DNA of 32,000 nucleotides, taken from NCBI RefSeq assembly GCF_000012805.1, contig NC_007484.1, positions 90,001-122,000 on the forward strand, in the 5' to 3' direction. Position 1 is the first letter of the stretch. The number at the start of each line of letters is the position of its first letter. The translations under genes and the position numbers were made by a program. Source of the DNA: Nitrosococcus oceani ATCC 19707 (GTDB taxonomy: Bacteria; Pseudomonadota; Gammaproteobacteria; Nitrosococcales; Nitrosococcaceae). Of this stretch, positions 1-22,972 are shown piece after piece. Below the pieces are notes generated by a model. That model was not told the DNA's origin, made no database searches, and saw only the letters and a program-made list of their open reading frames with translations.

Positions 1-63
1 TGCCTACGGCGGCCTCTGAGCTCAAGCGTTCGCGCCGCTGCGCATCGCGAACAACCGTTCGAC
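1..63 (+). repeat. attC-like site, 3' portion (cut by the window edge)
   Basis: Contains CCGCTGCGC, shared with the site at 2901-2957. Ends GAACAACCGTTCGAC, comparable to the ...AACTCAAGCGTTAGAT end of classical attC. The SIMPL gene starts 85 nt downstream. Confidence 0.3.
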
Positions 64-147
64 TGGCAGAACCTCCTGCATCATCAGATGCCGCACACCT
101 ATTACCTAGGAGAACCCGCCAGTCAATTCCCCGATAAGGAGATATTA

Positions 148-867
148 ATGACGGAATCAAATAAAAGTAATGCGATCGTGCTTGGCGTTTGTCTAATTAT
201 AGCCTTATCCTCTCTCGGCTATCTTCTTGGTAATGCCGCTATTAGATTTAAGGAGTACGAGCGAACAGTTACCGTAAAAGGACTATCGGAAAGGGAATAT
301 AGTGCAGATATCGTAATCTGGCCCATCCAGTTCAGTACCGCAAGTAATGATCTCGAAGAGATGTATAGATCCATAGATGCAAGCACTGAAAAGATAAAAT
401 CGTTTCTTGAAAGCGCTGGCGTTAATGCTGATGAAATCTCATATTCATTGCCTGCGATCACCGATAAGTCAGCGCAACAGTATGGTAATCAAGCTAAATC
501 TGAATTCAGATATACCGCCTCCCAAACAGTAACCGTTTATTCCAAAAACATTAATGTGGTGCGAGACGTTATGGGAAATATGTCTGATTTAGGAAAGCGG
601 GGAATTGTATTTACTGGCGGTGATTATCAATCACAAACTGAATATATTTTTACACGCCTAAATCAGGTGAAGCCTGAAATGATCGAAGAGGCGACAAGGA
701 AGGCCCGTGAAGTTGCAGAGAAATTTGCCGCCGATTCTAAAAGTACTTTAGGAAAGATTAAATCCGCCTCTCAAGGGCAATTTAGTATTAGTGCCAGGGA
801 TAAGAACAATCCTCATATTAAAAAAGTGAGGGTGGTTTCAACAGTTGCTTACTATCTTTCAGACTAA
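148..867 (+). CDS. SIMPL (DUF541) family periplasmic/membrane-anchored protein
   Basis: ATG at 148 is preceded by AAGGAG (136-141). It has an N-terminal TM/signal segment (AIVLGVCLIIALSSLGYLL). TVTVKGLSERE..., IKPEMIEEATRKAREVAEKFA and VRVVSTVAYYLSD match my memory of SIMPL proteins. The ORF-track start at 88 lacks an RBS. Confidence 0.78.
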   Translation: MTESNKSNAIVLGVCLIIALSSLGYLLGNAAIRFKEYERTVTVKGLSEREYSADIVIWPIQFSTASNDLEEMYRSIDASTEKIKSFLESAGVNADEISYSLPAITDKSAQQYGNQAKSEFRYTASQTVTVYSKNINVVRDVMGNMSDLGKRGIVFTGGDYQSQTEYIFTRLNQVKPEMIEEATRKAREVAEKFAADSKSTLGKIKSASQGQFSISARDKNNPHIKKVRVVSTVAYYLSD

Positions 868-877
868 TTAAATTTAA

Positions 878-953
878 GCATAACAAGAGCATGCAGATGG
901 ACACAGTGCCCGCTGAGCGTGCCCTGCGCCGCTGATGCCGGACGCTGAGGGAT
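878..953 (+). repeat. attC-like site after the SIMPL cassette, non-canonical 3' end
   Basis: GCATAACAAGAGCATGCAGATGG...GCGCCGCTGATGCCGGACGCTGAGGGATC. It shares GCAGATG with 2901-2957 and GCCGGACGC with 3947-4012. It ends GAGGGATC rather than GTTRRRY and abuts the transposase remnant. Confidence 0.4.
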
Positions 954-963
954 CCCCACAAAA

Positions 964-1368
964 CTACGCCAAATTCCGTTCACGCACATAATCTGGGAAT
1001 GATTCCCAGGACTGAATCAAGTCAGTACAGTTAATTGGGTAATCAGGTTGCCTGATGAGGGCGGCAGCAAGAAACAAAATGGATAGGACGTTACGATCAC
1101 GTACGGTGTTGGCTTGGAAATGGCGGTGCCATTGGTTGCGCTTGGCATGGCAGCCAATCCACCATAGACATCATGTGGCCAGTGCACCCATCAAAAGGAG
1201 GAGATTGAGTCGTTCGATATTCTTCGAACAACTGATGGTAATACCGAATCCGTATTTATCACTCTTTAAATCATGGAAATACTCCTCGATAAAGGCCAAC
1301 CTTGGATCAACACCATTATCAGTTGCGATAAACAATCCAACCGGGCTTGATGCCAGGGCAAAAAGCGC
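964..1368 (-). pseudogene. DDE transposase C-terminal remnant (IS4/IS5-like) with an in-frame TGA
   Basis: The minus-strand frame reads ...DPRLAFIEEYFHDLKSDKYGFGITISCSKNIERLNLLLLMGALAT*CLWWIGC...HFQANTVRDRNVLS... The R..E......K/LKS-GF and ERL..LL..ALA pattern is typical of DDE_Tnp_1 C-termini. An internal stop lies at 1171-1173 and no N-terminal catalytic part is present. Confidence 0.5.
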
Positions 1369-1383
1369 TTAAGTTCTCGGGCA

Positions 1384-1466
1384 AGTACATGAGCCGTGTT
1401 CATCAGTTCGTGATCCAGGTTCGTTTAGTCTCGGACCTGCTATCATAGCTCTACGGCTCATGTACT
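1384..1466. repeat. Perfect 14-bp inverted repeat (AGTACATGAGCCGT / ACGGCTCATGTACT) with a 55-nt spacer
   Basis: Read directly: arms at 1384-1397 and 1453-1466. The spacer has a nested 5-bp stem (CAGGT/ACCTG). It lies next to the truncation point of the DDE remnant. Confidence 0.8.
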
Positions 1467-1709
1467 ACACAAACCATAACTGACTGACCATACTAATAAT
1501 ATCTCGGTTTTGCACCGTACTAAGGAAAAACCTTATGAAGGTAAGCACAAACGCCGGGTTTCAGGATCCGGCGGCGGTATTTGCAAACCCAAACCACATG
1601 CATATTGCAATCGATAAGCGCTGTGCCCGGTAGTAATGACTTCCATAAGCCCACAACATACCGCCGCTAGGCTCATTATCCACGGCTAAACCCGTGGTGT
1701 TCTGCCAGT

Positions 1710-1727
1710 CAACTCCCCGATTAGGCG
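1710..1727 (+). repeat. attC 3' half-site immediately upstream of nirK
   Basis: CAACTCCCCGATTAGGCG is identical (18/18) to the 3' end of the attC-like site at 5026-5043. The 5' half has been replaced by unrelated sequence. Confidence 0.45.
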
Positions 1728-1777
1728 TTTGAGTATCCCTTTTGTTTAAATTTTTTAATTTACCTAGGAGATAAAGA

Positions 1778-2896
1778 ATGAAAAAGTTAATAAAGTATTT
1801 TGCTTTCTATCTAGCGACATTTTCATCGGTTTTGTATGCTGATGGAGAAGCATCATCTTATATTGCTAATATTGGCACCCATGCAAACTTAAAAGATCTA
1901 GAAAGAGTGAGGCAGGAATTAGTTGCGCCGCCACATTTGCCTGATCATCAACAAGCCTATTCTGGAAAGCCTCGAATTGTAGAAATAGAAATGGTCATTG
2001 AGGAAAAAGAGGTGGAAATAGAACCCAATGTTTTTGTTCAAGCAATGACCTTCAATGGTACCAATCCAGGGCCTATTATTGTTGTTCATGAGGGTGATTA
2101 CGTCGAGTTAACACTTAAAAACCTTGATACAAACATGTTGTTACATAATATCGATTTTCATCCTGCAACAGGTGCATTGGGTGGTGGCGCGCTTACTAAG
2201 GTGGCTCCTGGTCAGCAAGTAACATTACGATTCAAAGCAGATAAAGCTGGAACTTATGTCTATCACTGTGCTCCAGGCGGGCTAATGACTCCTTACCATG
2301 TTGTTTCAGGTATGTACGGCGCGATAATGATTTTTCCAAAAAAAGGTTTAAGAGATCAAAATGGGAAAAAGGTTACCTATGACAAGGCTTATTATGTTGG
2401 TGAGCAAGGTTGGTATATTCCAAAAGATAAAAATGGAAAGTACAAACGATACGCAAATGCAATAGAACCTTATGGTGATACTTTAGAGGTTATGCGGGGA
2501 CTTGTTCCAACACACGTCACATACAATGGGTCGAAAGGCGCTTTAACGGGAGACAATGCAATGAAGGCCAAGGTTGGTGATTCAGTCTTGTTTATTCATT
2601 CGCAAGCCAATGAAGATTCCCGTATTCACTTAATTGGCGGACACGGAGACCTAGTTTGGCCAGGTGGCTCTTTTAAGAATACTCCTATGGTTGACAAGGA
2701 AACATGGCATGTAAATGGTGGAGAATCCGTCGCTGCACTTTACACATTTAAACAGCCAGGGCTTTATGCTTATCTCAATCATAATTTGATTCAAGCGTTT
2801 ATGCTTGGCGGCGCTGCTCATGTGAAGGTAGATGGTGAGTGGAATAATGATCTAATGGAACAAGTTGTTAAGCCTAGTCCTATTAATGCAGATTGA
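1778..2896 (+). CDS. nirK: Copper-containing nitrite reductase (NirK), Sec-type signal peptide
   Basis: GGAG RBS at 1769-1772. The protein aligns by eye along its length with AfNiR-type NirK: HNIDFH (T1 His, catalytic Asp, T2 His), [18 protein letters not shown] (T2 His, T1 Cys, T1 His, T1 Met), [11 protein letters not shown] (catalytic His) and [12 protein letters not shown] (T2 His). GC is about 38%, against about 50-55% in the core part of the window. Confidence 0.93.
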
Positions 2897-2900
2897 TACA

Positions 2901-2957
2901 CCTAACAAGAAGAGGCAGCAGATGCTCTGCACCGCTGCGCGGCGTGAATCGGAGATA
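2901..2957 (+). repeat. attC-like site after nirK, non-canonical 3' end
   Basis: CCTAACAAGAAGAGGCAGCAGATGCTCTGCACCGCTGCGCGGCGTGAATCGGAGATA begins 5 nt after the nirK stop. It ends CGGAGAT, where the classical site has CGTTAGAT. Confidence 0.4.
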
Positions 2958-3251
2958 CTGCCATATGAAATTGGCAATGCACTATCTATCATGATCAAAC
3001 GAAAACGGCTTACCCATAATGAAGCACTGTCAGCGTTTAAAATAACGAGCCTGATTCACGTAAGGCTTGTTGCTATTGACATTCAGCAGGCATTAAAACT
3101 GGCATTTGAATTTAATATCTATGCTTATGGTGCGTACTTTTTGCAGTGCGCTCAGTCCTTATCGTGTCCGCTAATTACACTGAATAAACGCATGAAACAA
3201 GTTTCTGTCCAGGACATTCTGAATGCAATCCGAGACTCTAGAAAGGGCTAA
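2955..3251 (+). pseudogene. vapC: 5'-truncated PIN-domain (VapC-like) toxin fragment
   Basis: ILPYEIGNALS..KRKRLTHNEALSAF......LVAIDIQQALKLAFEFNIYAYGAYFLQCAQSLSCPLITLNKRM follows the C-terminal two thirds of VapC. The N-terminal Asp-containing strand is absent. No antitoxin lies upstream. Confidence 0.6.
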
Positions 3252-3314
3252 CAAAGCGCTCTAGCCGGCCAAAAATCTCTAAATCTCTGCGCGCTTCTTA
3301 GCCGGCTGGAGATC
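3247..3314 (+). repeat. attC-like site after the vapC fragment
   Basis: GCTAACAAAGCG (contains the TAA stop) is followed by CTCTAGCCGGCC (3259-3270). That pairs 10/12 with AGCCGGCTGGAG (3300-3311). The site ends GGAGATC. Confidence 0.45.
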
Positions 3315-3368
3315 AAAAAACAAGCGCTACATAACAAAATACCCAACATGCTTGTGGTTAAAGAATCA

Positions 3369-3422
3369 GCATAACAAAAATAAGGGATACCTATATATTG
3401 TTGCCTATCTTGTTTTTATCCG
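3369..3422 (+). repeat. Short attC-like imperfect palindrome with no ORF
   Basis: GCATAACAAAAATAAGGGATACC...GCCTATCTTGTTTTTATCCG. The outer arms are roughly complementary (CATAACAAAAATAAGG vs CTTGTTTTTAT). Another ACATAACAAAA box lies at 3329. Confidence 0.3.
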
Positions 3423-3438
3423 CTACTAGATTACCACC

Positions 3439-3750
3439 ATGACACAAGCGCGTTCGATTCAAATCAGCCTCGTCGATACGCCGTACTACCACCGCCTCGC
3501 CCGTTGTGTGCGCCGTGCATTCCTGTACGGCGTCGATGACTTCTCCGGTCGCAATTACGAACACCGCCGCCCATGGATTGTTGACAAGCTCAGGAGCTTA
3601 TCGTCCGTATTCACTATGGACATCTGCGCCTACGCCCTGATGAACTATCACTCCCATGCCGTGCGGGTCGATGAAGACACGGCGGGGCGCTGGGAAGAGG
3701 ACGACGTTATGGAACGCTGGAGCACTTTGTTTAGCACACCGGAGAAATAA
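3439..3750 (+). pseudogene. HUH/Y1 (IS200-like, COG1943-type) transposase-like gene, N-terminal third only
   Basis: MTQARSIQISL.DTPYYH...RCVRRAFLYG.D.FSG.NYEHRR.W...L..L..VF...ICAYALMNYHSHAV matches my memory of the roughly 320-aa family, including the HUH box (HSH). Homology stops where AT-rich unrelated sequence starts at about 3750. Confidence 0.62.
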
Positions 3751-3946
3751 AACTAAATTTGTTCGTATTATTGAAGAGACCACAAAGTTAAAATCATGCG
3801 AGATAGGCAATTTTCATGACTTGGATTTTATGTATCCAGATTCTGAAAGCGCGTATAGTATATTGCAGTCAGCAGGTGCAGATTTAATAGCTGATCCAGT
3901 TGGCGTGGCAATGGATGATTAGTATCGTAAGCGAAGCATAAAAAAC

Positions 3947-4012
3947 GCATAACAAACACATTAAATTCGCTCCCTTTGGTCGCCGGACGCCCGCTAGCTA
4001 GCGTCGTTTATG
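3947..4012 (+). repeat. attC-like site upstream of the ZIP gene
   Basis: GCATAACAAACAC...GTCGCCGGACGCCCGCTAGCTAGCGTCGTTTATG. The outer boxes CATAACA and GTTTATG are near-complementary. It follows the stop (3920-3922) of an unassignable ORF fragment. Confidence 0.4.
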
Positions 4013-4033
4013 GGGGCATTATACCTAATAGAT

Positions 4034-4753
4034 ATGCCTGAATACGTCTACATCATATTGTTATCGCTTCTCGCTGGGGCTGCTATGCCGGTTGGGGCTT
4101 TGCTTGCTCGCCTTGATGTTATGCATCCCGCATTTTTGAGGCAAAAGTCTCGGCAGTTTATGGTTGCTTTCGGCGGTGGCGCGCTTATATCTGCTGTGGC
4201 ACTCGTCTTAGTGCCTGATGGGGCCAGTAAACTATCACCTTTAACTGCAGCCTTATGTTTCGGAGCGGGAGGAGTTTTCTTCTACCTCCTCGATATGCTT
4301 TTAAATCAACTAAAAAGCTCAGCCGGTCAGCTAGTTGCCATGCTTTCCGATTTTATTCCGGAAGCTATTGCCCTCGGAGCCGCTTTCGCCGTTGGTGAGA
4401 GCACTGGTTTGATTTTAGCGTTGCTTATGGTTTTACAAAATCTCCCCGAGGGGTTTAATGCATACGAGGAATTAGAAAATTCTGCCAAATTAGCCCCGAA
4501 CAAAATACTAATGGCGTTCGCCAGTTTAGCTCTTGCAGGCCCTGTCTCCGCACTCACTGGGTATTTCGTTCTTGCAGAGTCGCACCAATTTGTAGCGGGA
4601 TTAATGCTATTCGCCAGTGCAGGCATTCTTTATTTGGTTTTTCAAGATATTGCTCCCGAGTCCAAAGCAAAAAACAGTGGTTTTCCAGCACTTGGAGCAG
4701 TCGCAGGGTTTATGCTTGGTCTAGTGGGCAACATGCTAATCGTTCCTGCTTAG
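4034..4753 (+). CDS. ZIP (ZupT/GufA-like) divalent-metal transporter
   Basis: Polytopic membrane protein with the LQNLPEG (HNxPEG-type) and DFIPEAIALG motifs of ZIP TM4/TM5. I prefer the ATG at 4034, because the ATG at 4010 lies inside the attC-like GTTTATG box. The start is uncertain. Confidence 0.82.
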   Translation: MPEYVYIILLSLLAGAAMPVGALLARLDVMHPAFLRQKSRQFMVAFGGGALISAVALVLVPDGASKLSPLTAALCFGAGGVFFYLLDMLLNQLKSSAGQLVAMLSDFIPEAIALGAAFAVGESTGLILALLMVLQNLPEGFNAYEELENSAKLAPNKILMAFASLALAGPVSALTGYFVLAESHQFVAGLMLFASAGILYLVFQDIAPESKAKNSGFPALGAVAGFMLGLVGNMLIVPA

Positions 4754-4780
4754 GTATAACGCCTGCCTTCAGCCGGCCCA
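4754..4780 (+). repeat. attC 5' half-site after the ZIP gene (3' half missing)
   Basis: GTATAACGCCTGCCTTCAGCCGGCCC begins 1 nt after the stop. It shares the (T/C)AGCCGGCC arm with 3259-3270. No complementary arm follows. Confidence 0.35.
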
Positions 4781-4798
4781 CTTTCCGCTACTTCCCTT

Positions 4799-4987
4799 CG
4801 GTCATTCGCTCCAAGCAGTATTGCCTTTGCACTGCCCTATTACCTGCAACTGCTTGATTGGACCGGCCGGGCGGTGCATGAGGACAGGCACGGTGCGCGA
4901 TTCCCGCCGATGTGCAGCCGAACGCTTGCAGGCGATGGGACAGCTATTTTGGTCTATACTCAGAATGTAGGCAAACCGCATAGGTAG
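4799..4987 (+). pseudogene. C-terminal fragment of the same HUH/Y1 transposase-like family
   Basis: ...ALPYYLQLLDWTGRAVHEDRHGA... matches the remembered DYLELVDWTGR..REDKRGAI block. Downstream, the expected IP..LPPILERL continues in another frame (IPADVQP / ERLQAMGQ), so the fragment is frameshifted. Confidence 0.45.
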
Positions 4988-4988
4988 C

Positions 4989-5043
4989 TGTTCTAACTCA
5001 GCGCCTCTCCGTGCGGGGTGCCGCTCAACTCCCCGATTAGGCG
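4989..5043 (+). repeat. attC-like site (best match to the classical aadA-type architecture)
   Basis: GTTCTAACTCAGCGCC...GCCGCTCAACTCCCCGATTAGGCG, compared with classical GTCTAACAATTCG...GCGGCTTAACTCAAGCGTTAGAT. The core CTCCGTGCGGGGTGCCGCTCAAC recurs at 6934-6956. Confidence 0.6.
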
Positions 5044-5114
5044 GCTGCGCGGAGCTTGAACCCAAAATTCCTGAATAGCTTATCGTAGTATTGTGAGAGT
5101 AAAAGGAGATTGAC

Positions 5115-5894
5115 ATGAGCATTAACGGAAAAGTCGCCCTGATCACAGGCGCAGGACAGGGCATCGGACGGGCGATTGCGTTACGTCTGGCCAACGACGG
5201 CGCGGACATCGCCATCGTAGATCTTAACGAAGAGAAAATGGGAGCTGTCGCCGACGAAGTGCGGGCGGCGGGTCGCAAGGCCACCACATTCAAAGCCGAT
5301 GTATCAAAGCGGAATGAGGTTTACGCCGCCGTTGACCACGCTGAAAAGGAACTTGGCGGCTTCGACATCATCGTTAACAATGCGGGTATCGCTACTATCC
5401 AATCCATCGCCGAGGTCACGCCCGAAGAAGTCGAAAAAATCTTCAAGGTCAATATTGAGGGCGTTTTGTGGGGCATTCAGGCCGCAGGCGCGAAGTTCAA
5501 GGAGCGCGAACAGAAAGGTAAAATCATCAACGCAGCATCCATCGCGGGCCATGAAAGCATGCCTCTGCTGGGCGTTTATTCGGCGACTAAGTTCGCCGTT
5601 CGTGCCCTGACGCAGGCGGCGGCCAAAGAGTTTGCGAGCGATGGGATCACAGTCAATGCTTACTGTCCCGGCATAGTCGGCACCGACATGTGGGTCGAAA
5701 TCGATCGGCGCATGGCAGAAATCACGGGAGCCAAAATCGGTGAAAACTATGACAGATACGTCGGCGACATTGCTCTTGGTCGGGCGCAGACGCCCGAAGA
5801 TGTGGCATCTTTCGTTTCCTATCTGGCGGGGCCGGATTCGGATTACATGACTGGACAAGCTCCCTTGATTGACGGTGGCCTTGTTTATCGTTGA
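5115..5894 (+). CDS. budC: Acetoin (diacetyl) reductase / meso-2,3-butanediol dehydrogenase, classical SDR
   Basis: AAGGAG RBS at 5101-5106. [16 protein letters not shown] and YSATKFAVR (YxxxK) are present. Similarity to Klebsiella BudC runs nearly end to end as I recall it ([45 protein letters not shown]). GC is about 57%. Confidence 0.88.
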
Positions 5895-5969
5895 GTTTGA
5901 ATGCCGCGTTCTGCAAAGCAAGAACGTTCGTCGAACCTAAAATAAAAATTTTTTAACGAGAAAATTTAT

Positions 5970-6542
5970 ATGATTAAAATTGCGGTTATTATCGGTAGCA
6001 CCCGTCCGAAGCGTGTGGGCGAATCCGTCGCGCGCTGGGTTTATGACATCGCCGTGCAGCGCAGCGATGCCGAGTTCGAGCTGGTTGATCTCAAGGAGTT
6101 CGACCTGCCGCTGCTCGATGAGCCAGTGCCGCCTTCGATGGGGCAGTACTCCCAGCCGCACACTAAAGCATGGGCGGCCAAAGTCGCGTCCTTCGATGCC
6201 TATGTTTTCGTGACGCCCGAATACAATCACGGTACACCGGGCGCACTCAAAAATGCGCTTGATTTTGTCTATGCCGAGTGGAACAACAAAGCAGCAGGTT
6301 TCGTGAGTTACGGCAGCGCCGGGGGTGCGCGAGCAGTGGAACAACTCAGGTTGGTAGCAAGCGAATTGCAAATGGCTCACGTCCGCAATCAAGTGATGTT
6401 CTCGTTTTTCACCGACTTCCAAAACATGAGCGAGTTCACGCCGCACGAGCGTCATCAAAAATCGGTTGATGATATGCTGGATCAACTCATTGCTTGGGGT
6501 GGCGTGTTGAAAACCCTCCGTGAAAACGCAAAGGCTAAGTGA
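5970..6542 (+). CDS. NAD(P)H-dependent FMN reductase family oxidoreductase
   Basis: MIKIAVIIGSTRP.R.G..VA.WV, FVTPEYNHG.PG.LKNALD and NK.AGFVSYG are typical of the PF03358 flavodoxin-like reductases. Confidence 0.85.
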   Translation: MIKIAVIIGSTRPKRVGESVARWVYDIAVQRSDAEFELVDLKEFDLPLLDEPVPPSMGQYSQPHTKAWAAKVASFDAYVFVTPEYNHGTPGALKNALDFVYAEWNNKAAGFVSYGSAGGARAVEQLRLVASELQMAHVRNQVMFSFFTDFQNMSEFTPHERHQKSVDDMLDQLIAWGGVLKTLRENAKAK

Positions 6543-6593
6543 TGTTTCTTCATAATTCCGACTAACTAAAGTCCCGGCCCGATTGACACTGGG

Positions 6594-6930
6594 ATGAAAA
6601 TTGCTCACGCGCATTTAAAAGTCGCCACTTTGTAACGCGCGCTGGATTTCTACTGCGGAGTACTTAGCTTAGAGTTGACTCAACGCTTCGGATCACAAGC
6701 GGCATTTGTTTTGGCGGGCGGCTATCATCATCATATCGAGCTGAACACATGGGAAAGCGCGGGTGGCTTGCTGCCGTCTGCTGGCACCCCTGGACCTTTT
6801 ATCAGTTGGCGATTTTATATCCGACGCCTGGCGTGCTGCTGGCGAATGTTCGGCGCCGCGTACTGGTAGCTGGATTCAACTGAATGGTGTCGGCGGTCAC
6901 GGCGTTAGCGAAGCCTTATATCTGAACGGC
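6594..6930 (+). pseudogene. Glyoxalase/VOC-family gene, frameshifted and 3'-truncated
   Basis: Homologous blocks lie in different frames: MKIAHAHLKVATL* (6594), then LTQRFGSQAAFVLAGGYHHHIELNTWESAGG (frame of ORF 6675), then GHGVSEALYLNGP (frame of ORF 6763). The expected C-terminal ~40 aa are replaced by the attC-like site. Confidence 0.7.
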
Positions 6931-6972
6931 CCCCTCCGTGCGGGGTGTCGCTCAACGTTGACCCGTTATGCC
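6920..6972 (+). repeat. attC-like site ending in canonical GTTATGC
   Basis: ATCTGAACGGCCCCCTCCGTGCGGGGTGTCGCTCAACGTTGACCCGTTATGCC. 23 nt (6934-6956) match 5007-5029 with one mismatch. Confidence 0.55.
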
Positions 6973-6982
6973 GACAAGGAAC

Positions 6983-7217
6983 ATGGCAGTGAAGGCGATG
7001 AAATACTTCCAGGCAATTCGGGTCATACCGGATCGAGCGATCATCAAGGGCGAATGGATTCAACATGTAGTCCGGTTTCCTGAAAGAGAGCACTGACAGC
7101 CGAATAAAGCGATAGGCTAGAATTGAAGAAACGGAAAACCGATACTTGCGGGTAATCTTATTGCCGGCTGGCGAAACCATACATAACGCATTTTTTGATA
7201 GAGGGTACGAGGCATGA
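6983..7217 (+). pseudogene. DUF4258-family toxin-like gene, inactivated
   Basis: MAVKAMKYFQAIRVIPDRAIIKGEWIQHVVRFPERE. After a frame change it reads TDSRIKR*ARIEETENRYLRVILLPAGETIHNAFFDRGYEA. A TAG sits where I expect a conserved TGG (Trp). Its stop overlaps the next start (ATGA at 7214-7217). Confidence 0.55.
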
Positions 7218-7411
7218 AAGTCATCTATTTCGAAGACACTGACACGCTGTACATTAAGGTTCGCGGCAGTGATATCGCTGAGTCTAAAGACCTAGATGAG
7301 AACACTATTTTCGATATGGAAGCCAACGGTAACGTCCGCACTATCACGTTCGAGCATGCAAGCCAGCGCACCAATGTAAGCCGTTTGATTGTCGAAGGCA
7401 TTGCGGCATAG
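7214..7411 (+). CDS. DUF2283 domain protein (putative antitoxin partner of DUF4258)
   Basis: MKVIYFEDTDTLYIKV.....AESKDLDENTIFDMEANGNVRTITFEHASQR has the typical DUF2283 pattern (Y...D.LYI.......ES.........D.D..G.V.GI.I..AS). It is translationally coupled to the upstream pseudogene. Confidence 0.7.
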   Translation: MKVIYFEDTDTLYIKVRGSDIAESKDLDENTIFDMEANGNVRTITFEHASQRTNVSRLIVEGIAA

Positions 7412-7474
7412 CAATCCCATCAAGCTGATTGGGCTACGCTGTGCTCCGTCCAAAGGCTTAGCGGTTGTTAGGCA
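7406..7474 (+). repeat. attC-like site ending in canonical GTTAGGC
   Basis: GCATAGCAATCC (contains the TAG stop)...GGCTTAGCGGTTGTTAGGCAT. The outer boxes are about 8/12 complementary. The next ORF starts 20 nt downstream. Confidence 0.5.
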
Positions 7475-7493
7475 TATACAGGTAGGTGGCAGT

Positions 7494-8048
7494 ATGAGAT
7501 TTAAAGGCGTTCACCACATTGAGTTTTCAGTGCTTAATTACGAGGAGTCGATCCGATTCTTCGATCAGATGTTCGGCTGGCTTGGATACAGGAGTTTTTG
7601 GACATTAGATATCGGTTATAGGTCGACCTATTACATGGCCCGCTTCCCTTTCTTTCACAGTTACATTGGTATCCAACCGGCTAAAACGGGGAATAAGCTG
7701 GTGCATGTTGATCGTACCACTGGAGTACATCATATCGCGTTGTGGGCCAGGAACAGGAAGGAGGTCGATGACTTCCACATGGAGTTTCTGCTGAAAAATA
7801 ACATCGCTGTCACTAACCCGCCGAGCGAGTATCCAACTTATACTCCTGGTTACTATGCTGTGTTTTTTAATGACCCGATTACCGGAATTCACTTTGAGTT
7901 GAGCCACACGCCGATGCTACCTTCTCTGTCCAGCTATCTCGCGTGGATTCGGGCGCTAAAAAATATTTGGCGCAAGCACCCTGAATGGAAGGCGCCACCT
8001 TGGAAGGAATCGATGCGCAAGTTACCGTCAAGGCATGAGCAAGCCTAA
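7494..8048 (+). CDS. VOC (glyoxalase/bleomycin-resistance/dioxygenase) superfamily protein
   Basis: FKGVHHIEFSV.NYEESI.FFD..FGWLGY and TGVHHIALWA....EVD.F have the paired beta-alpha-beta-beta-beta module pattern. I prefer the ATG at 7494, because the ORF-track start at 7389 reads through the attC-like site. Confidence 0.72.
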   Translation: MRFKGVHHIEFSVLNYEESIRFFDQMFGWLGYRSFWTLDIGYRSTYYMARFPFFHSYIGIQPAKTGNKLVHVDRTTGVHHIALWARNRKEVDDFHMEFLLKNNIAVTNPPSEYPTYTPGYYAVFFNDPITGIHFELSHTPMLPSLSSYLAWIRALKNIWRKHPEWKAPPWKESMRKLPSRHEQA

Positions 8049-8247
8049 CAAAAAGTAGCCTTATCAATTTTGCACGTCCGCTTTTGATGTATTTTGGTCC
8101 GGAAGTTTTCCACCTTAAGCCAGTGGTAGAGGGTTTCGCGTGATACGTTAAATATTCGTGCGGCCTTTGTCTTACTGCCGCTATTATTTAGGTACGAGAT
8201 TGCCGCTCTATGACGGATGGGGTGAAAATCCTACTGTCCCGGTTCAT
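8045..8247 (-). pseudogene. IS630-family transposase N-terminal (HTH) fragment
   Basis: The minus strand reads ...RHRAAISYLNNSGSKTKAARIFNVSRETLYHWLKVENFRTKIHQKRTCKIDKATF. This fits the IS630/Tc1 OrfA HTH pattern (LR.RVI.Y...GGS...AA..F.VS..T.Y.W.K). The ATG at 8247 is in another frame, so the fragment is frameshifted. No DDE domain follows. Confidence 0.5.
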
Positions 8248-8302
8248 TTAGCTTAAAGAGAGGAAGTCGTATTTTATTGTCCTTAGTATTTGAATTCGGC
8301 GT

Positions 8303-8356
8303 GCCTAACAACGCGCCAACCGGACAGGTACTTCCTTTGCGCCGCGCCGGTTAGGT
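8303..8356 (+). repeat. attC site (most canonical copy): last recombination site of the array
   Basis: GCCTAACAACGCGCCAACCGG...GCGCCGCGCCGGTTAGGT. CCTAAC is complementary to GTTAGG, and the inner CCAACCGG/CCGGTT(A)GG arms also pair. Core-like sequence follows. Confidence 0.65.
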
Positions 8357-8554
8357 TGCTCAATACAATTTTTACCTGCTTTTCCTGTTATTATTTCCAT
8401 AGCTATCTTCTTTACTTTAGCAGGGATTATTTTACTGCTTATCTTTTAAATTATTTATAATACTAGCAGCTGAAGGTAAACTATTATTTCTTATGCCAAA
8501 ATTTAATATTCCCATGTCTCTTCCCATTCTGGCTAGCACCTTTAAACGATAGTA

Positions 8555-9269: not shown

Positions 9270-10871
9270 ATGGCCAGCGGTTATCTAAGCCTTATCCTAC
9301 ATGCCCATTTGCCTTATGTGCGGCATCCTGAACAGGAGGAAGCGTTAGAGGAACGGTGGCTGTTTGAAGCCATGACTGAATGTTACCTTCCCCTCCTGAC
9401 CACTTTTGAACGGCTAACGAATGAGGGAATTCCGTTTTACCTGACACTCTCCTTATCCCCAACCTTGCTCTCCATGCTTCAAGACCCCCTATTGCTGCAG
9501 CGCTATGGACTTCACATGGAGAAGCTTATTTCCCTAGCCGAGAAAGAAATCCGATATACCCGGGGCAATACTGATCTTAACCGGCTGGCGCGCCTTTACC
9601 GGCGCTGGTTTTTGCAGACACTTTCAGACTTTGAGGAGCGTTATCAGCGCCAATTGGTGCCGGCTTTTGCCCGTCTCCAGCAAGAAGGGGTCCTTGAGAT
9701 TATTACTTGTGCCGCTACCCATGGCTTTTTACCCTTGCTACAACCGGAGCCCACGGCTGTCTACGCTCAGCTCCAGGTTGCCGCTGATTACTACCGGCAA
9801 TGTTTTGGCATTGCTCCTAAAGGCATTTGGCTGCCCGAGTGCGCTTATTACCCAGGGCTTGAAAAGGTATTAAAAGCAGTAGGTTTCCGTTATTTTTTCA
9901 TTGAAACTGAAGCCCTTCTCCATGCCAGCACTCGGCCTCGCTATGACCATTTCGCTCCCGTTGCCTGCCCGAATGGGGTGGCTGCCTTTGGGCGGGAGCC
10001 AGCACTTTCGCGGCAAGTTTGGAGCGCCGAGGAAGGCTATCCTGGCGACGGTGATTACCGGGAATTCTATCGGGATGTGGGCTTTGAACGAGAACTGAGT
10101 TACCTTCAACCTTATCTTCCTGATGGCCGAATCCGGGTCGATACCGGCATGAAATATTATCGGGTAACCGATAAAACTGAGTATAAAGCTCCCTATCAAC
10201 CTGCTAAGGCCCAGGCTAGGGTTGCTTGCCATGCCGGTCACTTTTACCACCATTGCCTGCAACAGATAACAGGCGCCAACAGGATGGACCGGCCACCGCT
10301 CCTGGTTGCCCCTTACGATGCCGAATTGTTTGGTCATTGGTGGTTTGAAGGCCCCCAATGGCTCGAGCAGTTACTACGCCGGATCGGGACAGGGGAGGGA
10401 GCAATTCAAACCATCACCCCTTCCCAGTATTTGACTCAACACCCTGTGCTCCAGCAAGCGACACCGAACCTATCCAGCTGGGGCGATAGGGGCTATTATG
10501 ATTTTTGGCTCAATGAAAAAACTGACTGGATATACCCCCTGTTGCACCGGGCCGCGCGGCGCATGAAGGAGCTTACGATAGCTTATGGCCACGAGTCTAA
10601 GGGAACCCTTGCCGGCCGTGCCCTGGGACAGGCCGCTCGCTCACTGCTATTGGCCCAGGCTTCGGATTGGCCTTTTATCCTTCAAAATGGAACGACGGTG
10701 GAGTACGCCACTCGCCAGCTACAGGATCATTTGTCCCGCTTTCATTATTTAGAAATGGTTTTGGAAAGGAAAAGCTTTGATGAGCGCCGGCTACAGGCTT
10801 TGGAGGCCCTTGATAATATCTTCCCGGAACTTGATTACCGCGTTTACAAACACCCCTATAGGGAACGATAA
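9270..10871 (+). CDS. Glycoside hydrolase family 57 protein (GlgB-type alpha-glucan branching enzyme-like, DUF1957 C-terminus)
   Basis: GYLSLILHAHLPYVRH is the GH57 region 1. GIWLPECAYYPG carries the nucleophile Glu, and APYDAELFGHWWFEG carries the acid/base Asp. The ASDWPF block lies near the C-terminus. Confidence 0.88.
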   Translation: MASGYLSLILHAHLPYVRHPEQEEALEERWLFEAMTECYLPLLTTFERLTNEGIPFYLTLSLSPTLLSMLQDPLLLQRYGLHMEKLISLAEKEIRYTRGNTDLNRLARLYRRWFLQTLSDFEERYQRQLVPAFARLQQEGVLEIITCAATHGFLPLLQPEPTAVYAQLQVAADYYRQCFGIAPKGIWLPECAYYPGLEKVLKAVGFRYFFIETEALLHASTRPRYDHFAPVACPNGVAAFGREPALSRQVWSAEEGYPGDGDYREFYRDVGFERELSYLQPYLPDGRIRVDTGMKYYRVTDKTEYKAPYQPAKAQARVACHAGHFYHHCLQQITGANRMDRPPLLVAPYDAELFGHWWFEGPQWLEQLLRRIGTGEGAIQTITPSQYLTQHPVLQQATPNLSSWGDRGYYDFWLNEKTDWIYPLLHRAARRMKELTIAYGHESKGTLAGRALGQAARSLLLAQASDWPFILQNGTTVEYATRQLQDHLSRFHYLEMVLERKSFDERRLQALEALDNIFPELDYRVYKHPYRER

Positions 10872-18237: not shown

Positions 18238-18792
18238 TCAAAAAGAAGAATCAGCTTTCTTTAGAAAGGCGATCTCTGCTGGAGTAGATGGTCGCTCTAA
18301 TATTTGGTTTCGATGGGGATAACGACCAAACCGAGTAATAATTGCTTGATGCTTTATCTCACAATCATACTGGGACTCTAATCCCGGCTCAGCAAATAAT
18401 TTTATCCCAATCTGGTGAATTTTTAGGGATTCACTGTGCATAAAAGGCATATAAAGAAATATCTTATGCTCCGAATTGAGCATTTTACCGACATTTTTAT
18501 CAATGGCTTCCTGAGACAGAATTAGCGCGGCCGTATCATAAGCAAAGGACAAGGGGTGATTGCGATATATATTTCGTGAGAATTGATCTAAAATAATGAT
18601 TTCAGCTAACCTGCCAAAAGGCTCTCTCCTCCACTCGTAGAGTTCGCCCTGCACCGCCGCTCTATGATGGGCTTTGAAACGTTCCTTGATAAGTTGGTCA
18701 AAGTGGGGGATTTTTTTCCACCAAGACTCAGGCTTAATCTCTTTAAACCAAAAATCTATAATCTGCTGATGATGCATGCTATTAAGTAGCAT
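18238..18792 (-). CDS. DUF924 family protein
   Basis: IIDFWF.E..PE.WW.K...FD..I..RF, LDQFSRN.YR, HSE and RFGR.PHRN..L.R.ST..E..FL match the DUF924 pattern. The start is ambiguous (TTG 18801, ATG 18792 or ATG 18777). Confidence 0.78.
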   Translation of the reverse strand: MLLNSMHHQQIIDFWFKEIKPESWWKKIPHFDQLIKERFKAHHRAAVQGELYEWRREPFGRLAEIIILDQFSRNIYRNHPLSFAYDTAALILSQEAIDKNVGKMLNSEHKIFLYMPFMHSESLKIHQIGIKLFAEPGLESQYDCEIKHQAIITRFGRYPHRNQILERPSTPAEIAFLKKADSSF

Positions 18793-18916
18793 TAATTTCA
18801 AAGCTTATTTGAAAATAGCGCTCAGCAATTATTAAGTTTAATTCCATAAAGTAATGCCTTTATCAAGAATTGCAATGCAAAATCTGGCTCTGGTTTTTTA
18901 AATTTTCTTCAACTCA

Positions 18917-22456: not shown

Positions 22457-22972
22457 TCAATCGGGAGAGCCGTCTTTTATAGTTCCGACTCGCACTCGGT
22501 CTACCGTCCACCACCAGTGGGTTATCTCGTAACTCTTGTCCGCATCAAAGCTAATCTTTGCTGTTTCTCCATCTTTGACCGTACCTTTTTCAAGCGTAAT
22601 TTCCGATCTGGTACCTGCTGTCGTGCTTTTGTCCTCTGTTACCGCTTTTCCAAAGGGTCCTTTCTTTTGTGTCTTAATTTCATCGACACTAAAAATTACA
22701 TGAAGATCATTAACATCTACTCCTTCCTCATTCTTAAATTTGAAGTCTTCCCAATGATCAGTGACCTCAGCCGTTTCCAAATTAAACCCGTTTATTTCAT
22801 ACAATTCATTTAACTCAGGGTCATATGATTGAATCTGAGGGATTGCTGCAAGCTGAGGGGTTTCCCTGAAGATATAGGGCTCCTGAGCCCAAGCGTTAAA
22901 AGCGGGTAAGCTGAAAAATCCCAGGATAATTGCAGCTACACTCATTGCGTAATGTTTATGATTTTTAAACAT
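22457..22972 (-). CDS. Secreted hypothetical protein (orphan)
   Basis: GGAG-containing RBS (AGGAGAAATACG ATG). The signal peptide is MSVAAIILGFFSLPAFNAWA/QE. I recognise no family. GC is lower than in the neighbouring genes. Confidence 0.6.
   Translation of the reverse strand: MFKNHKHYAMSVAAIILGFFSLPAFNAWAQEPYIFRETPQLAAIPQIQSYDPELNELYEINGFNLETAEVTDHWEDFKFKNEEGVDVNDLHVIFSVDEIKTQKKGPFGKAVTEDKSTTAGTRSEITLEKGTVKDGETAKISFDADKSYEITHWWWTVDRVRVGTIKDGSPD

Follow-up and report, generated by a model that had tools for sequence, protein, structure and literature searches.

Here, we present an analysis of the locus of nirK in Nitrosococcus oceani ATCC 19707, based on a 32,000-nt stretch of the chromosome (hereafter, the window). 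nirK lies at positions 1778 to 2896 on the plus strand, and window positions 1 to 8357 make up the distal part of an integron array, after which core glycogen-metabolism genes follow. The analysis followed up an original prediction, made from the sequence alone, that nirK was acquired horizontally as a mobile gene cassette.

nirK (Noc_0089) encodes a 372-aa class-1 copper-containing nitrite reductase (CuNiR) that is 100% identical to N. oceani ABA56624 and to NirK of other N. oceani strains, including the protein encoded at the nirK locus of strain NS58. This match identifies the host as N. oceani and, consequently, as the ammonia oxidizer that had been assumed from the gene content. As a whole protein, NirK scores 459.4 bits against TIGR02376 (cutoff, 296.3), and it aligns end to end with solved class-1 CuNiR structures with E values of 1e-135 to 1e-137. 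Based on these alignments, the type-1 Cu ligands (His123, Cys164, His174, and Met179), the type-2 Cu ligands (His128, His163, and His284), and the catalytic residues Asp126 and His246 are all present, as had been read from the sequence; the same ligands and the same catalytic Asp and His are found in the enzymes of Achromobacter xylosoxidans, Alcaligenes faecalis, and Achromobacter cycloclastes, with which NirK aligns over its full length. NirK has a Sec signal peptide with cleavage before A21-DGEAS, in agreement with the published mature construct, which starts with ADGEAS. Because all Cu-binding and catalytic residues are in place and recombinant N. oceani NirK (strain NS58) has been purified as an active, green, trimeric CuNiR (PMC4103548), we conclude that the open reading frame (ORF) at 1778 to 2896 encodes the functional NO-forming copper nitrite reductase of N. 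oceani. Unlike the nirK genes of denitrifiers with class-1 enzymes, N. oceani nirK has no nirV, nnrR, or nor neighbors, is AT-rich, and appears to be cassette-borne. The nirK cluster of Nitrosomonas europaea has been proposed to act, like nirK of N. oceani, in nitrifier denitrification and nitrite tolerance; however, NirK of this species is a class-2 enzyme encoded in an operon with an NsrR operator and with multicopper oxidase and cytochrome genes upstream, whereas N. oceani NirK is of class 1 and monocistronic. In an account cited in PMC4103548, N. oceani nirK is reported to be without an NsrR motif.

nirK is located inside an integron cassette array. Positions upstream of the window are given on a longer N. 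oceani flank (L001), on which a position minus 8223 equals the window position. Approximately 5 kb upstream of nirK, two overlapping minus-strand ORFs match TIGR02249 at profile positions 69 to 179 and 189 to 315 and represent an integrase pseudogene, i.e., a frameshifted intI (L001 4133 to 4988, minus strand). intI is frameshifted in both N. oceani strains for which the upstream flank was read (NS58 and AFC27). The integron lies between a DNA-glycosylase gene and the glycogen genes, and its array ends with an attC site at 8303 to 8357 (plus strand; GCCTAAC...GTTAGGT), which was identified using the attC model described below and which is the same site as that at 9741 to 9794 of the Nitrosococcus watsonii C-113 locus (L096). 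All cassette ORFs are on the plus strand, as is nirK, the cassette of which is roughly the seventh in the array. In order, the array contains an unknown ORF, a sulfotransferase, two toxin-antitoxin pairs of the BrnT/BrnA type, SIMPL, nirK, a truncated PIN ORF, a membrane protein, a short-chain dehydrogenase/reductase (SDR) with a flavin mononucleotide (FMN) reductase, DUF2283, and a glyoxalase-like protein.

The cassette ORFs are separated by RYYYAAC...GTTRRRY sites. In a cleaned alignment with a hand-set structure, 14 such sites from N. oceani and N. watsonii have an L box that is 90% paired, compensatory changes in seven of eight pairs, and a constant extrahelical position, which argues that these sites are a genuine attC family. 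The covariance model based on this alignment was trained only on Nitrosococcus sites and is weak on divergent ones, with three true sites outside the training set scoring 10 to 16 bits; single-strand folding energies of short sites are not discriminating, as true attC sites also have z scores near 0. The attC site of the BrnT/BrnA cassette preceding SIMPL is canonical (full site, L001 8200 to 8257), and its 3′ end occupies window positions 1 to 34 on the plus strand, with R′ (GTTCGCG) at 28 to 34, based on the attC alignment and compensatory pairing. The attC site of the SIMPL cassette (883 to 951, plus strand; R″ GCATAAC) scores 59.6 bits in the model, of which it is a training site. Its R′ box is GCTGAGG rather than GTTRRRY, and the full paired structure is kept; this variant may have arisen by drift after inactivation.

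Overall, the N. oceani integron resembles the sedentary chromosomal integrons of Vibrio cholerae (the superintegron), Xanthomonas, Shewanella, and N. europaea (IntINeu), in which an integron integrase at a fixed chromosomal site is accompanied by a divergent array of same-strand cassettes with many toxin-antitoxin pairs, a species-typical attC family, and proximal cassettes that differ among strains and species. Integrase decay, which is described for Xanthomonas, is a further likeness. In contrast to those integrons, the N. oceani array holds a gene for a respiratory nitrogen-cycle enzyme, intI is inactivated in N. oceani and apparently intact in N. watsonii, and several junctions carry an atypical A|TT inverted-repeat (IR) element.

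In a circular cassette, the first six bases (TTRRRY) are joined to the R″ box of the attC site of the same cassette, and the two are therefore expected to be reverse complements. Seven cassettes other than nirK follow this boundary rule in 6/6 positions, i.e., sulfotransferase, BrnT-1, GFA, TIR, 392-aa, BrnT-2 (AFC132), and HigB (N. watsonii). BrnT-2 of ATCC 19707 follows it in 5/6 positions, and the rule fails for the SIMPL cassette (TAAGGA versus GCATAAC, 2/6). For nirK, TTAGGC and its own ACCTAAC are complementary in 5/6 positions in ATCC 19707, while the cassette starts with TTAGGT in strain AFC132 (L014) and is complementary to R″ in 6/6 positions. Based on this complementarity and on leader alignments, the 5′ end and leader of the nirK cassette span 1721 to 1777 (plus strand), with the TTAGGC(G) core at 1721 to 1727 and the ribosome binding site AGGAG at 1766 to 1770. 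At the other end, the stop codon TGA (2894 to 2896) is followed by ACCTAAC at 2900 to 2906, starting 4 nt after the stop, which fits RYYYAAC; the next three bases are AAG, the spacer of nearly every attC site in the array. Together with the start of the L″ side, these elements form the 5′ half of the nirK attC site (2900 to 2928, plus strand), as identified using the model and complementarity; L′ and R′ are missing. Because the integrase is frameshifted, the attC site is halved, and the base ahead of TT is not G, the nirK cassette is very probably immobile today.

The original prediction held that an 18-mer ahead of nirK is an attC 3′ half-site. The repeat itself is real: CAACTCCCCGATTAGGCG is present at 1710 to 1727 and, identical in 18/18 positions, at 5026 to 5043 (chance expectation, 0.06 matches); a third copy with three mismatches lies at 124 to 141, and over its full length of 25 nt, the repeat occurs three times. 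However, with A|TT in place of G|TT, it is not a canonical half-site but the 3′ arm of a separate IR element of ∼160 nt, followed by the TTAGGCG that belongs to the nirK cassette. Two full copies of this element are found in AFC132 (L014 1 to 146 and 649 to 808). They consist of hairpin-1 (TTCGCGCCGC-TGC-GCGGCGCGAA), the 5′ arm AATCGGGGAGTTGAC, ∼109 nt with two hairpins, and the 3′ arm GTCAACTCCCCGATT, and the element folds as a three-way junction (z of −7 to −8) with a perfect 14- to 16-bp stem of terminal inverted repeats. In the window, an internally deleted copy at 29 to 134 (plus strand; 88.6% and 85.7% identical to L014 41 to 145 and 703 to 807, respectively) contains the 18-mer with three mismatches and ends with ...CCCCGA|TAAGGA. 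Based on repeat alignments, only the 3′ arm TGCCAGTCAACTCCCCGA is left upstream of nirK (1703 to 1720, plus strand; junction A1720|T1721), where the copy is cut by an IS200/IS605 remnant, and a 3′ remnant with the second exact 18-mer precedes the SDR cassette (5004 to 5036, plus strand; junction A5036|TTAGGC). Alignment with the full copies revealed a deletion variant in N. watsonii (L096 ∼3830 to 3947) and a remnant 3′ of nirK at 2929 to 2962 (plus strand), comprising hairpin-1 (GCACCGC-TGC-GCGGCGTG) and the degenerate 5′ arm AATCGGAGATACTGCC. The half attC site of nirK joins the latter remnant at a CCGCTGCGC motif, which is common to the centers of canonical attC sites and to IR hairpin-1, and the remnant ends at ∼2962, abutting the truncated PIN-domain ORF. 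Deletions of this kind would explain the IR variants upstream of SIMPL and in N. watsonii. We also noticed a 26-nt sequence, CCYCTCCGTGCGGGGTGYCGCTCAAC, of which one copy lies in the IR remnant upstream of SDR (5004 to 5029) and the other at 6931 to 6956, inside a frameshifted glyoxalase/VOC-like pseudogene region (∼6620 to 7000); the two copies are identical in 24/26 positions.

The left end of the IR element is located exactly at the crossover of a canonical R′ box (G|TTCGCG), and its first 6 to 10 nt are complementary to its own R″-like box (CGCGAA|T; boundary rule, 6/6). The right end, ...CCCCGA|, adjoins TTATGC, TTAAAT, or TTAGGY, each of which is complementary to the R″ box of the next cassette, and the cassettes with such a start are GFA, TIR, HigB, and nirK. 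In every Nitrosococcus copy, AAT and ATT are found instead of the conserved AAC (R″) and GTT (R′); on folding, the element is without the unpaired R/L spacer and the extrahelical bases of attC sites, and it does not match the attC covariance model. No Rfam match was obtained in the window or L014. The arm pattern AATCGGGGAGTTGAC-N95-125-GTCAACTCCCCGAT had 0 matches in a genome contig collection in which a search with the GH57 protein of the window gave 80 loci and no Nitrosococcus (best identity, 56%), and the 3′ pattern had 0 matches in metagenome contigs. Because the element starts at the R′ crossover, is complementary to its own R″-like box, and is followed by cassettes with complementary hexamers, it appears to behave like a cassette that has no ORF and that the integrase has inserted, and a compensated AAT/ATT pair stands in place of AAC/GTT. 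In being short, non-coding, and located exactly between crossover points, with a stem closed by the element ends and a branched variable part, it resembles ORF-less cassettes and long branched attC sites such as the V. cholerae repeats (VCR), while it differs from VCR-type attC sites by AAT/ATT, the perfect stem, and the lack of an unpaired central spacer and extrahelical bases. Similar to IS1111-attC insertion sequences and group IIC-attC introns, it is repeated DNA found specifically at the attC sites of an array; unlike those elements, it is only ∼160 nt long, encodes nothing, has both of its ends at crossover positions, and shows none of the features of introns or the IS110 family.

Comparison with relatives, one of the checks that had been proposed for the prediction, revealed that nirK is kept within N. 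oceani and is missing from the corresponding array of N. watsonii. We found nirK in all N. oceani strains examined. From the second BrnT cassette to the core, nirK included, AFC132 is colinear with ATCC 19707 and 96 to 98% identical to it; the DNA identity of nirK, at 97.7%, is similar to that of its flanks. The proximal cassettes of AFC132 are different (GFA, TIR/SEFIR, and a 392-aa ORF), and the breakpoint is exactly at G|TTAGCA. In N. watsonii C-113, the locus of which was reached via the DUF4912 orthologue, the integrase at the same chromosomal site appears intact (327 aa) and is accompanied by an array of 9.7 kb, in which the cassettes (ParE, HigB, HicAB, monooxygenase, fragments of a cyclic oligonucleotide-based antiphage signaling system, and others) differ from those of N. 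oceani; the overlap between the two arrays is limited to an IS630 remnant and the last two cassettes, and nirK is absent from this array, the part of N. watsonii that we examined. Based on the different cassettes of N. watsonii and the proximal replacement in AFC132 at G|TTAGCA, we suggest that the Nitrosococcus array is a working record of cassette turnover with nirK in its variable portion, and we infer that the N. oceani lineage gained nirK after separating from that of N. watsonii but before its sequenced strains diverged from one another. Separately, the first BrnT/BrnA cassette of AFC132 has lost internal sequence, so that the start of brnT is now fused to brnA (L014 3388 to 3645 versus L001 7114 to 7636).

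In a comparison along the lines of the second proposed check, with core ORFs of the window as the reference, nirK is atypical in codon usage. Its GC content at third codon positions (GC3) is 0.306 compared with 0.508 ± 0.051 for 18 core ORFs of the window, i.e., ∼4 standard deviations (SD) under the core mean, and its distance in relative synonymous codon usage (RSCU) from the pooled core is 0.677 compared with 0.384 ± 0.093 for core ORFs, i.e., ∼3 SD above the core mean. The contention that nirK is AT-rich relative to the core was therefore correct; its exact GC content of 0.405 is slightly higher than the ∼38% given earlier. Altogether, these data support that nirK is foreign in composition. 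Outside the array, two minus-strand ORFs (18238 to 18801 and 22457 to 22972) have a GC content of 0.40 to 0.42 and RSCU distances of 0.53 and 0.65 and may be further small foreign insertions. The closest named NirK proteins are those of Nitrosomonas cryotolerans and Nitrosomonas mobilis (82% amino acid identity), and in a neighbor-joining tree, N. oceani NirK groups with these proteins within a clade of uncultured marine Gammaproteobacteria of the SUP05/Thioglobus type. Lateral transfer of N. oceani nirK was already suggested on the basis of phylogeny alone (PMC4103548), and nirK is missing in other genera of gammaproteobacterial ammonia-oxidizing bacteria (AOB) (PMC8115276).

In both Nitrosomonas species, the DNA homology with N. 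oceani ends downstream at an R″-like box and upstream at a short junction arm. In N. cryotolerans, it begins at ...TCAACTTTAC-GTTAGGCG, ∼75 nt before the start codon, extending past TTAGGC through the short conserved junction arm, and it stops at TGATAC-GCCTAA just past the stop codon. The boundary boxes at this locus, GTTAGGCG and CGCCTAA, are complementary in 7/7 positions and include a canonical GTTAGGC; the corresponding boxes of N. mobilis are GTCAGGT and ATCTAAC. Using the Nitrosococcus-trained model, we detected attC sites 160 nt downstream of nirK in N. mobilis (39.1 bits), 2.5 kb downstream of nirK in N. cryotolerans (32.6 bits), and near nirK on a metagenome contig (28.4 bits). The N. 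mobilis locus (L098) also contains two 70-aa fragments of an intI-type N-terminal domain (PF13495) at 2013 to 2225 and 6413 to 6625, on the same strand as nirK, which bracket nirK, vapBC, and two other ORFs.

Based on the boundary complementarity, the limits of homology, the attC sites near nirK in other hosts, the integron context, and the N. watsonii array without nirK, we consider it likely that nirK is an integron gene cassette (∼1721 to 2928) in a decayed sedentary chromosomal integron, captured after the species split and now fixed. Several observations weigh against this interpretation. Ahead of TTAGGC, ATCC 19707 has A and AFC132 has C instead of the canonical G; no complete attC site (R″-L″...L′-R′) was found at the 3′ end of nirK, where nothing but R″, the spacer, and some of the 5′ side is left, and a scan based on minimum free energy found no AAC-GTT-closed site there. 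The original prediction of an attC-like element just after the stop codon is thus borne out for the RYYYAAC box and the AAG spacer but holds for a 5′ half only, and a failure of the flanking repeats in attC structural models had been named in advance as evidence against the cassette: our model did not detect the IR element or any attC site in the immediate upstream flank of nirK, and it scored the downstream element (2900 to 2940) at 8.3 bits (E value, 5.5), which is noise level. Since true sites outside the training set also have low scores, we suggest that the score of the nirK site mainly reflects the loss of its 3′ half and does not mean that a site is absent. Moreover, the attC site adjacent to N. 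mobilis nirK is on the opposite strand, and the closest NirK, an 85% identical metagenome homologue (L008), is followed by an ordinary terminator and has no core sites. Finally, insertion sequence (IS) remnants are located immediately upstream of N. oceani nirK, namely, a remnant of an IS4-family transposase gene (1171 to 1335, minus strand; NCBIfam NF033591, E value of 9e-7, profile positions 237 to 273 of 340) and an N-terminal remnant of IS200/IS605 tnpA (1520 to 1654, minus strand; NF033573, E value of 8.6e-6; PF01797, E value of 2e-4) that abuts the truncated IR arm, and an IS5 fragment and a resolvase-like remnant flank nirK in N. cryotolerans. These remnants and the incomplete attC site would fit an IS-assisted move, in which nirK came on an IS-mobilized or illegitimately recombined fragment that landed in the array, with TTAGGC and CCTAAC being coincidental or belonging to the neighbors. 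We regard this scenario as improbable: the IS remnants in N. oceani are outside the segment common with Nitrosomonas and interrupt the IR element rather than bounding nirK; the shared segment stops downstream at an R″-like box and runs upstream through TTAGGC and the junction arm; the two boundary boxes are mutually complementary in three hosts; orientation and leader length are as in other cassettes; and an RYYYAAC box within 10 nt of the stop codon has a probability of ∼1% by chance. That nirK is an old, vertically inherited Nitrosococcus gene around which the array grew would agree with its presence in all N. oceani strains examined and with a divergence similar to that of the flanks; however, this is very hard to reconcile with its absence from the corresponding array of N. 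watsonii, its low GC3, its nearest relatives in Nitrosomonas and uncultured marine Gammaproteobacteria, and the lack of nirK in other gammaproteobacterial AOB genera. Returning to the cassette interpretation, we propose that the nirK cassette was captured by integrase recombination at a TTRRRY core site from a pool of low-GC marine bacteria that would also have given nirK to N. cryotolerans and N. mobilis. During later decay, intI would have been frameshifted, the IS200 and IS4 elements inserted upstream of nirK and degraded, and the 3′ half of the nirK attC site lost by deletion into the neighboring repeat, so that nirK would now be effectively fixed. Accordingly, horizontal acquisition as a cassette agrees with the foreign composition, the location in the array, the boundary match, and the absence from the N. 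watsonii array, while mobility at present is unlikely.

Two aspects of this scenario have alternatives of their own, i.e., the nature of the IR element and the origin of nirK transcripts. The IR element could be a small parasitic element, resembling a miniature inverted-repeat transposable element (MITE) or an IS200/IS605-type end, that targets attC junctions and is neither a recombination site nor an ORF-less cassette. Its perfect terminal inverted repeats, multiple copies, and strong fold are as expected for such an element, as is the lack of AAC/GTT, an unpaired spacer, an extrahelical base, and detection by the attC model; in addition, two truncated copies abut the IS200/IS605 tnpA remnant and an ORF fragment without a family match (∼4830 to 4990), respectively. 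Nevertheless, we consider a parasitic element a live but less likely alternative because the position of the left end and the complementarities within the element and in the cassettes that follow it are what the insertion of a small circle by an integrase predicts, and no target-site duplication was seen at the element. To our knowledge, insertion at the crossover point is not a property of the known attC-targeting elements (IS1111-attC elements and group IIC-attC introns). Concerning transcription, the original prediction held that the nirK leader contains an RBS and no obvious promoter or regulator site and that nirK would depend on read-through. The first part agrees with our data: no sigma-70-like promoter in the leader passed our scan, neither a sigma-70 promoter nor an intrinsic terminator was predicted between position 800 and the start codon at 1778, and inspection of the leader, by eye only, gave no convincing FNR/NnrR, NsrR, or sigma-54 motif. 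These findings and the fact that gene cassettes are typically promoterless make it conceivable that nirK is promoterless and transcribed by read-through from upstream cassettes or the integron promoter Pc. However, Pc would lie ∼5 kb upstream, with six cassettes, attC hairpins, and opposite-strand IS remnants in between, and AFC132, N. cryotolerans, N. mobilis, and the 85% identical metagenome homologue all retain the AT-rich ∼57-nt leader, which is thus conserved across four hosts in which the upstream DNA is unrelated. Furthermore, N. oceani nirK mRNA was reported to increase 10.1-fold with ammonium and 7.8-fold with hydroxylamine based on RT-qPCR, while microarrays showed no rise (PMC3772326). 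Because of the conserved leader and this induction, we consider it somewhat more likely that the promoter is cassette-borne, in which case nirK expression would start from signals in the 57-nt leader that travel with the cassette.

The remaining features of the array concern its distal part. The annotated 109-aa ORF 3′ of nirK (2922 to 3251, plus strand) has a weak match to PF01850 (E value of 0.0076, profile positions 53 to 118 of 120). As only its C-terminal part is similar to the second half of a PIN domain, we read it as a truncated toxin gene of the next cassette; it has no similarity to N. mobilis VapC. At 3247 to 3400 (L014 7510 to 7700), a cluster of R″-like boxes (GGCTAAC, ACATAAC, and GCATAAC) without matching R′ boxes suggests stacked attC truncations, and AFC132 has an additional insertion of ∼45 nt at this cluster. 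The ORF fragments at 3439 to 3750 and ∼4830 to 4990, with two cassettes between them, have no Pfam or NCBIfam match; they may be the N- and C-terminal halves of one Y1/REP-type transposase-like gene. Between the last two attC sites, an IS630-type helix-turn-helix remnant lies at ∼8045 to 8200 (L001 16268 to 16423, minus strand); its conservation in N. watsonii indicates that it predates the species split.

The NirK enzyme, its activity, its class-1 affiliation, and a suspected lateral transfer were already published. A comparison of strains describes the region as a mere aggregation of mobile elements that begins at an integrase (PMC7285500), and in the searchable literature, we found no paper that links Nitrosococcus nirK to an integron or a cassette. 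New here are the integron cassette as the concrete vehicle proposed for nirK, the presence of attC sites near nirK in four hosts, and the similar boundaries at its closest homologues in two Nitrosomonas species, which provide evidence that the same nirK cassette may circulate among gamma- and betaproteobacterial AOB. More tentatively, we speculate that nirK is an exchangeable cassette that has moved between these two groups and, at the same time, that the IR element represents a new class of recombination site that has been inserted repeatedly by the integrase. If recombinogenic, the A|TT IR element would widen the known sequence requirements of attC sites and could interest integron specialists. 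NirK is the entry enzyme of nitrifier denitrification, which is one source of the NO and N2O released by ammonia oxidizers. If nirK is exchangeable in this way, the capacity for nitrifier denitrification, and with it NO and N2O production, would belong to the marine integron cassette pool. A cassette-borne nirK would explain the patchy distribution of this gene among gammaproteobacterial AOB and would show that chromosomal integrons trade core nitrogen-cycle functions, beyond toxin-antitoxin and unknown genes.

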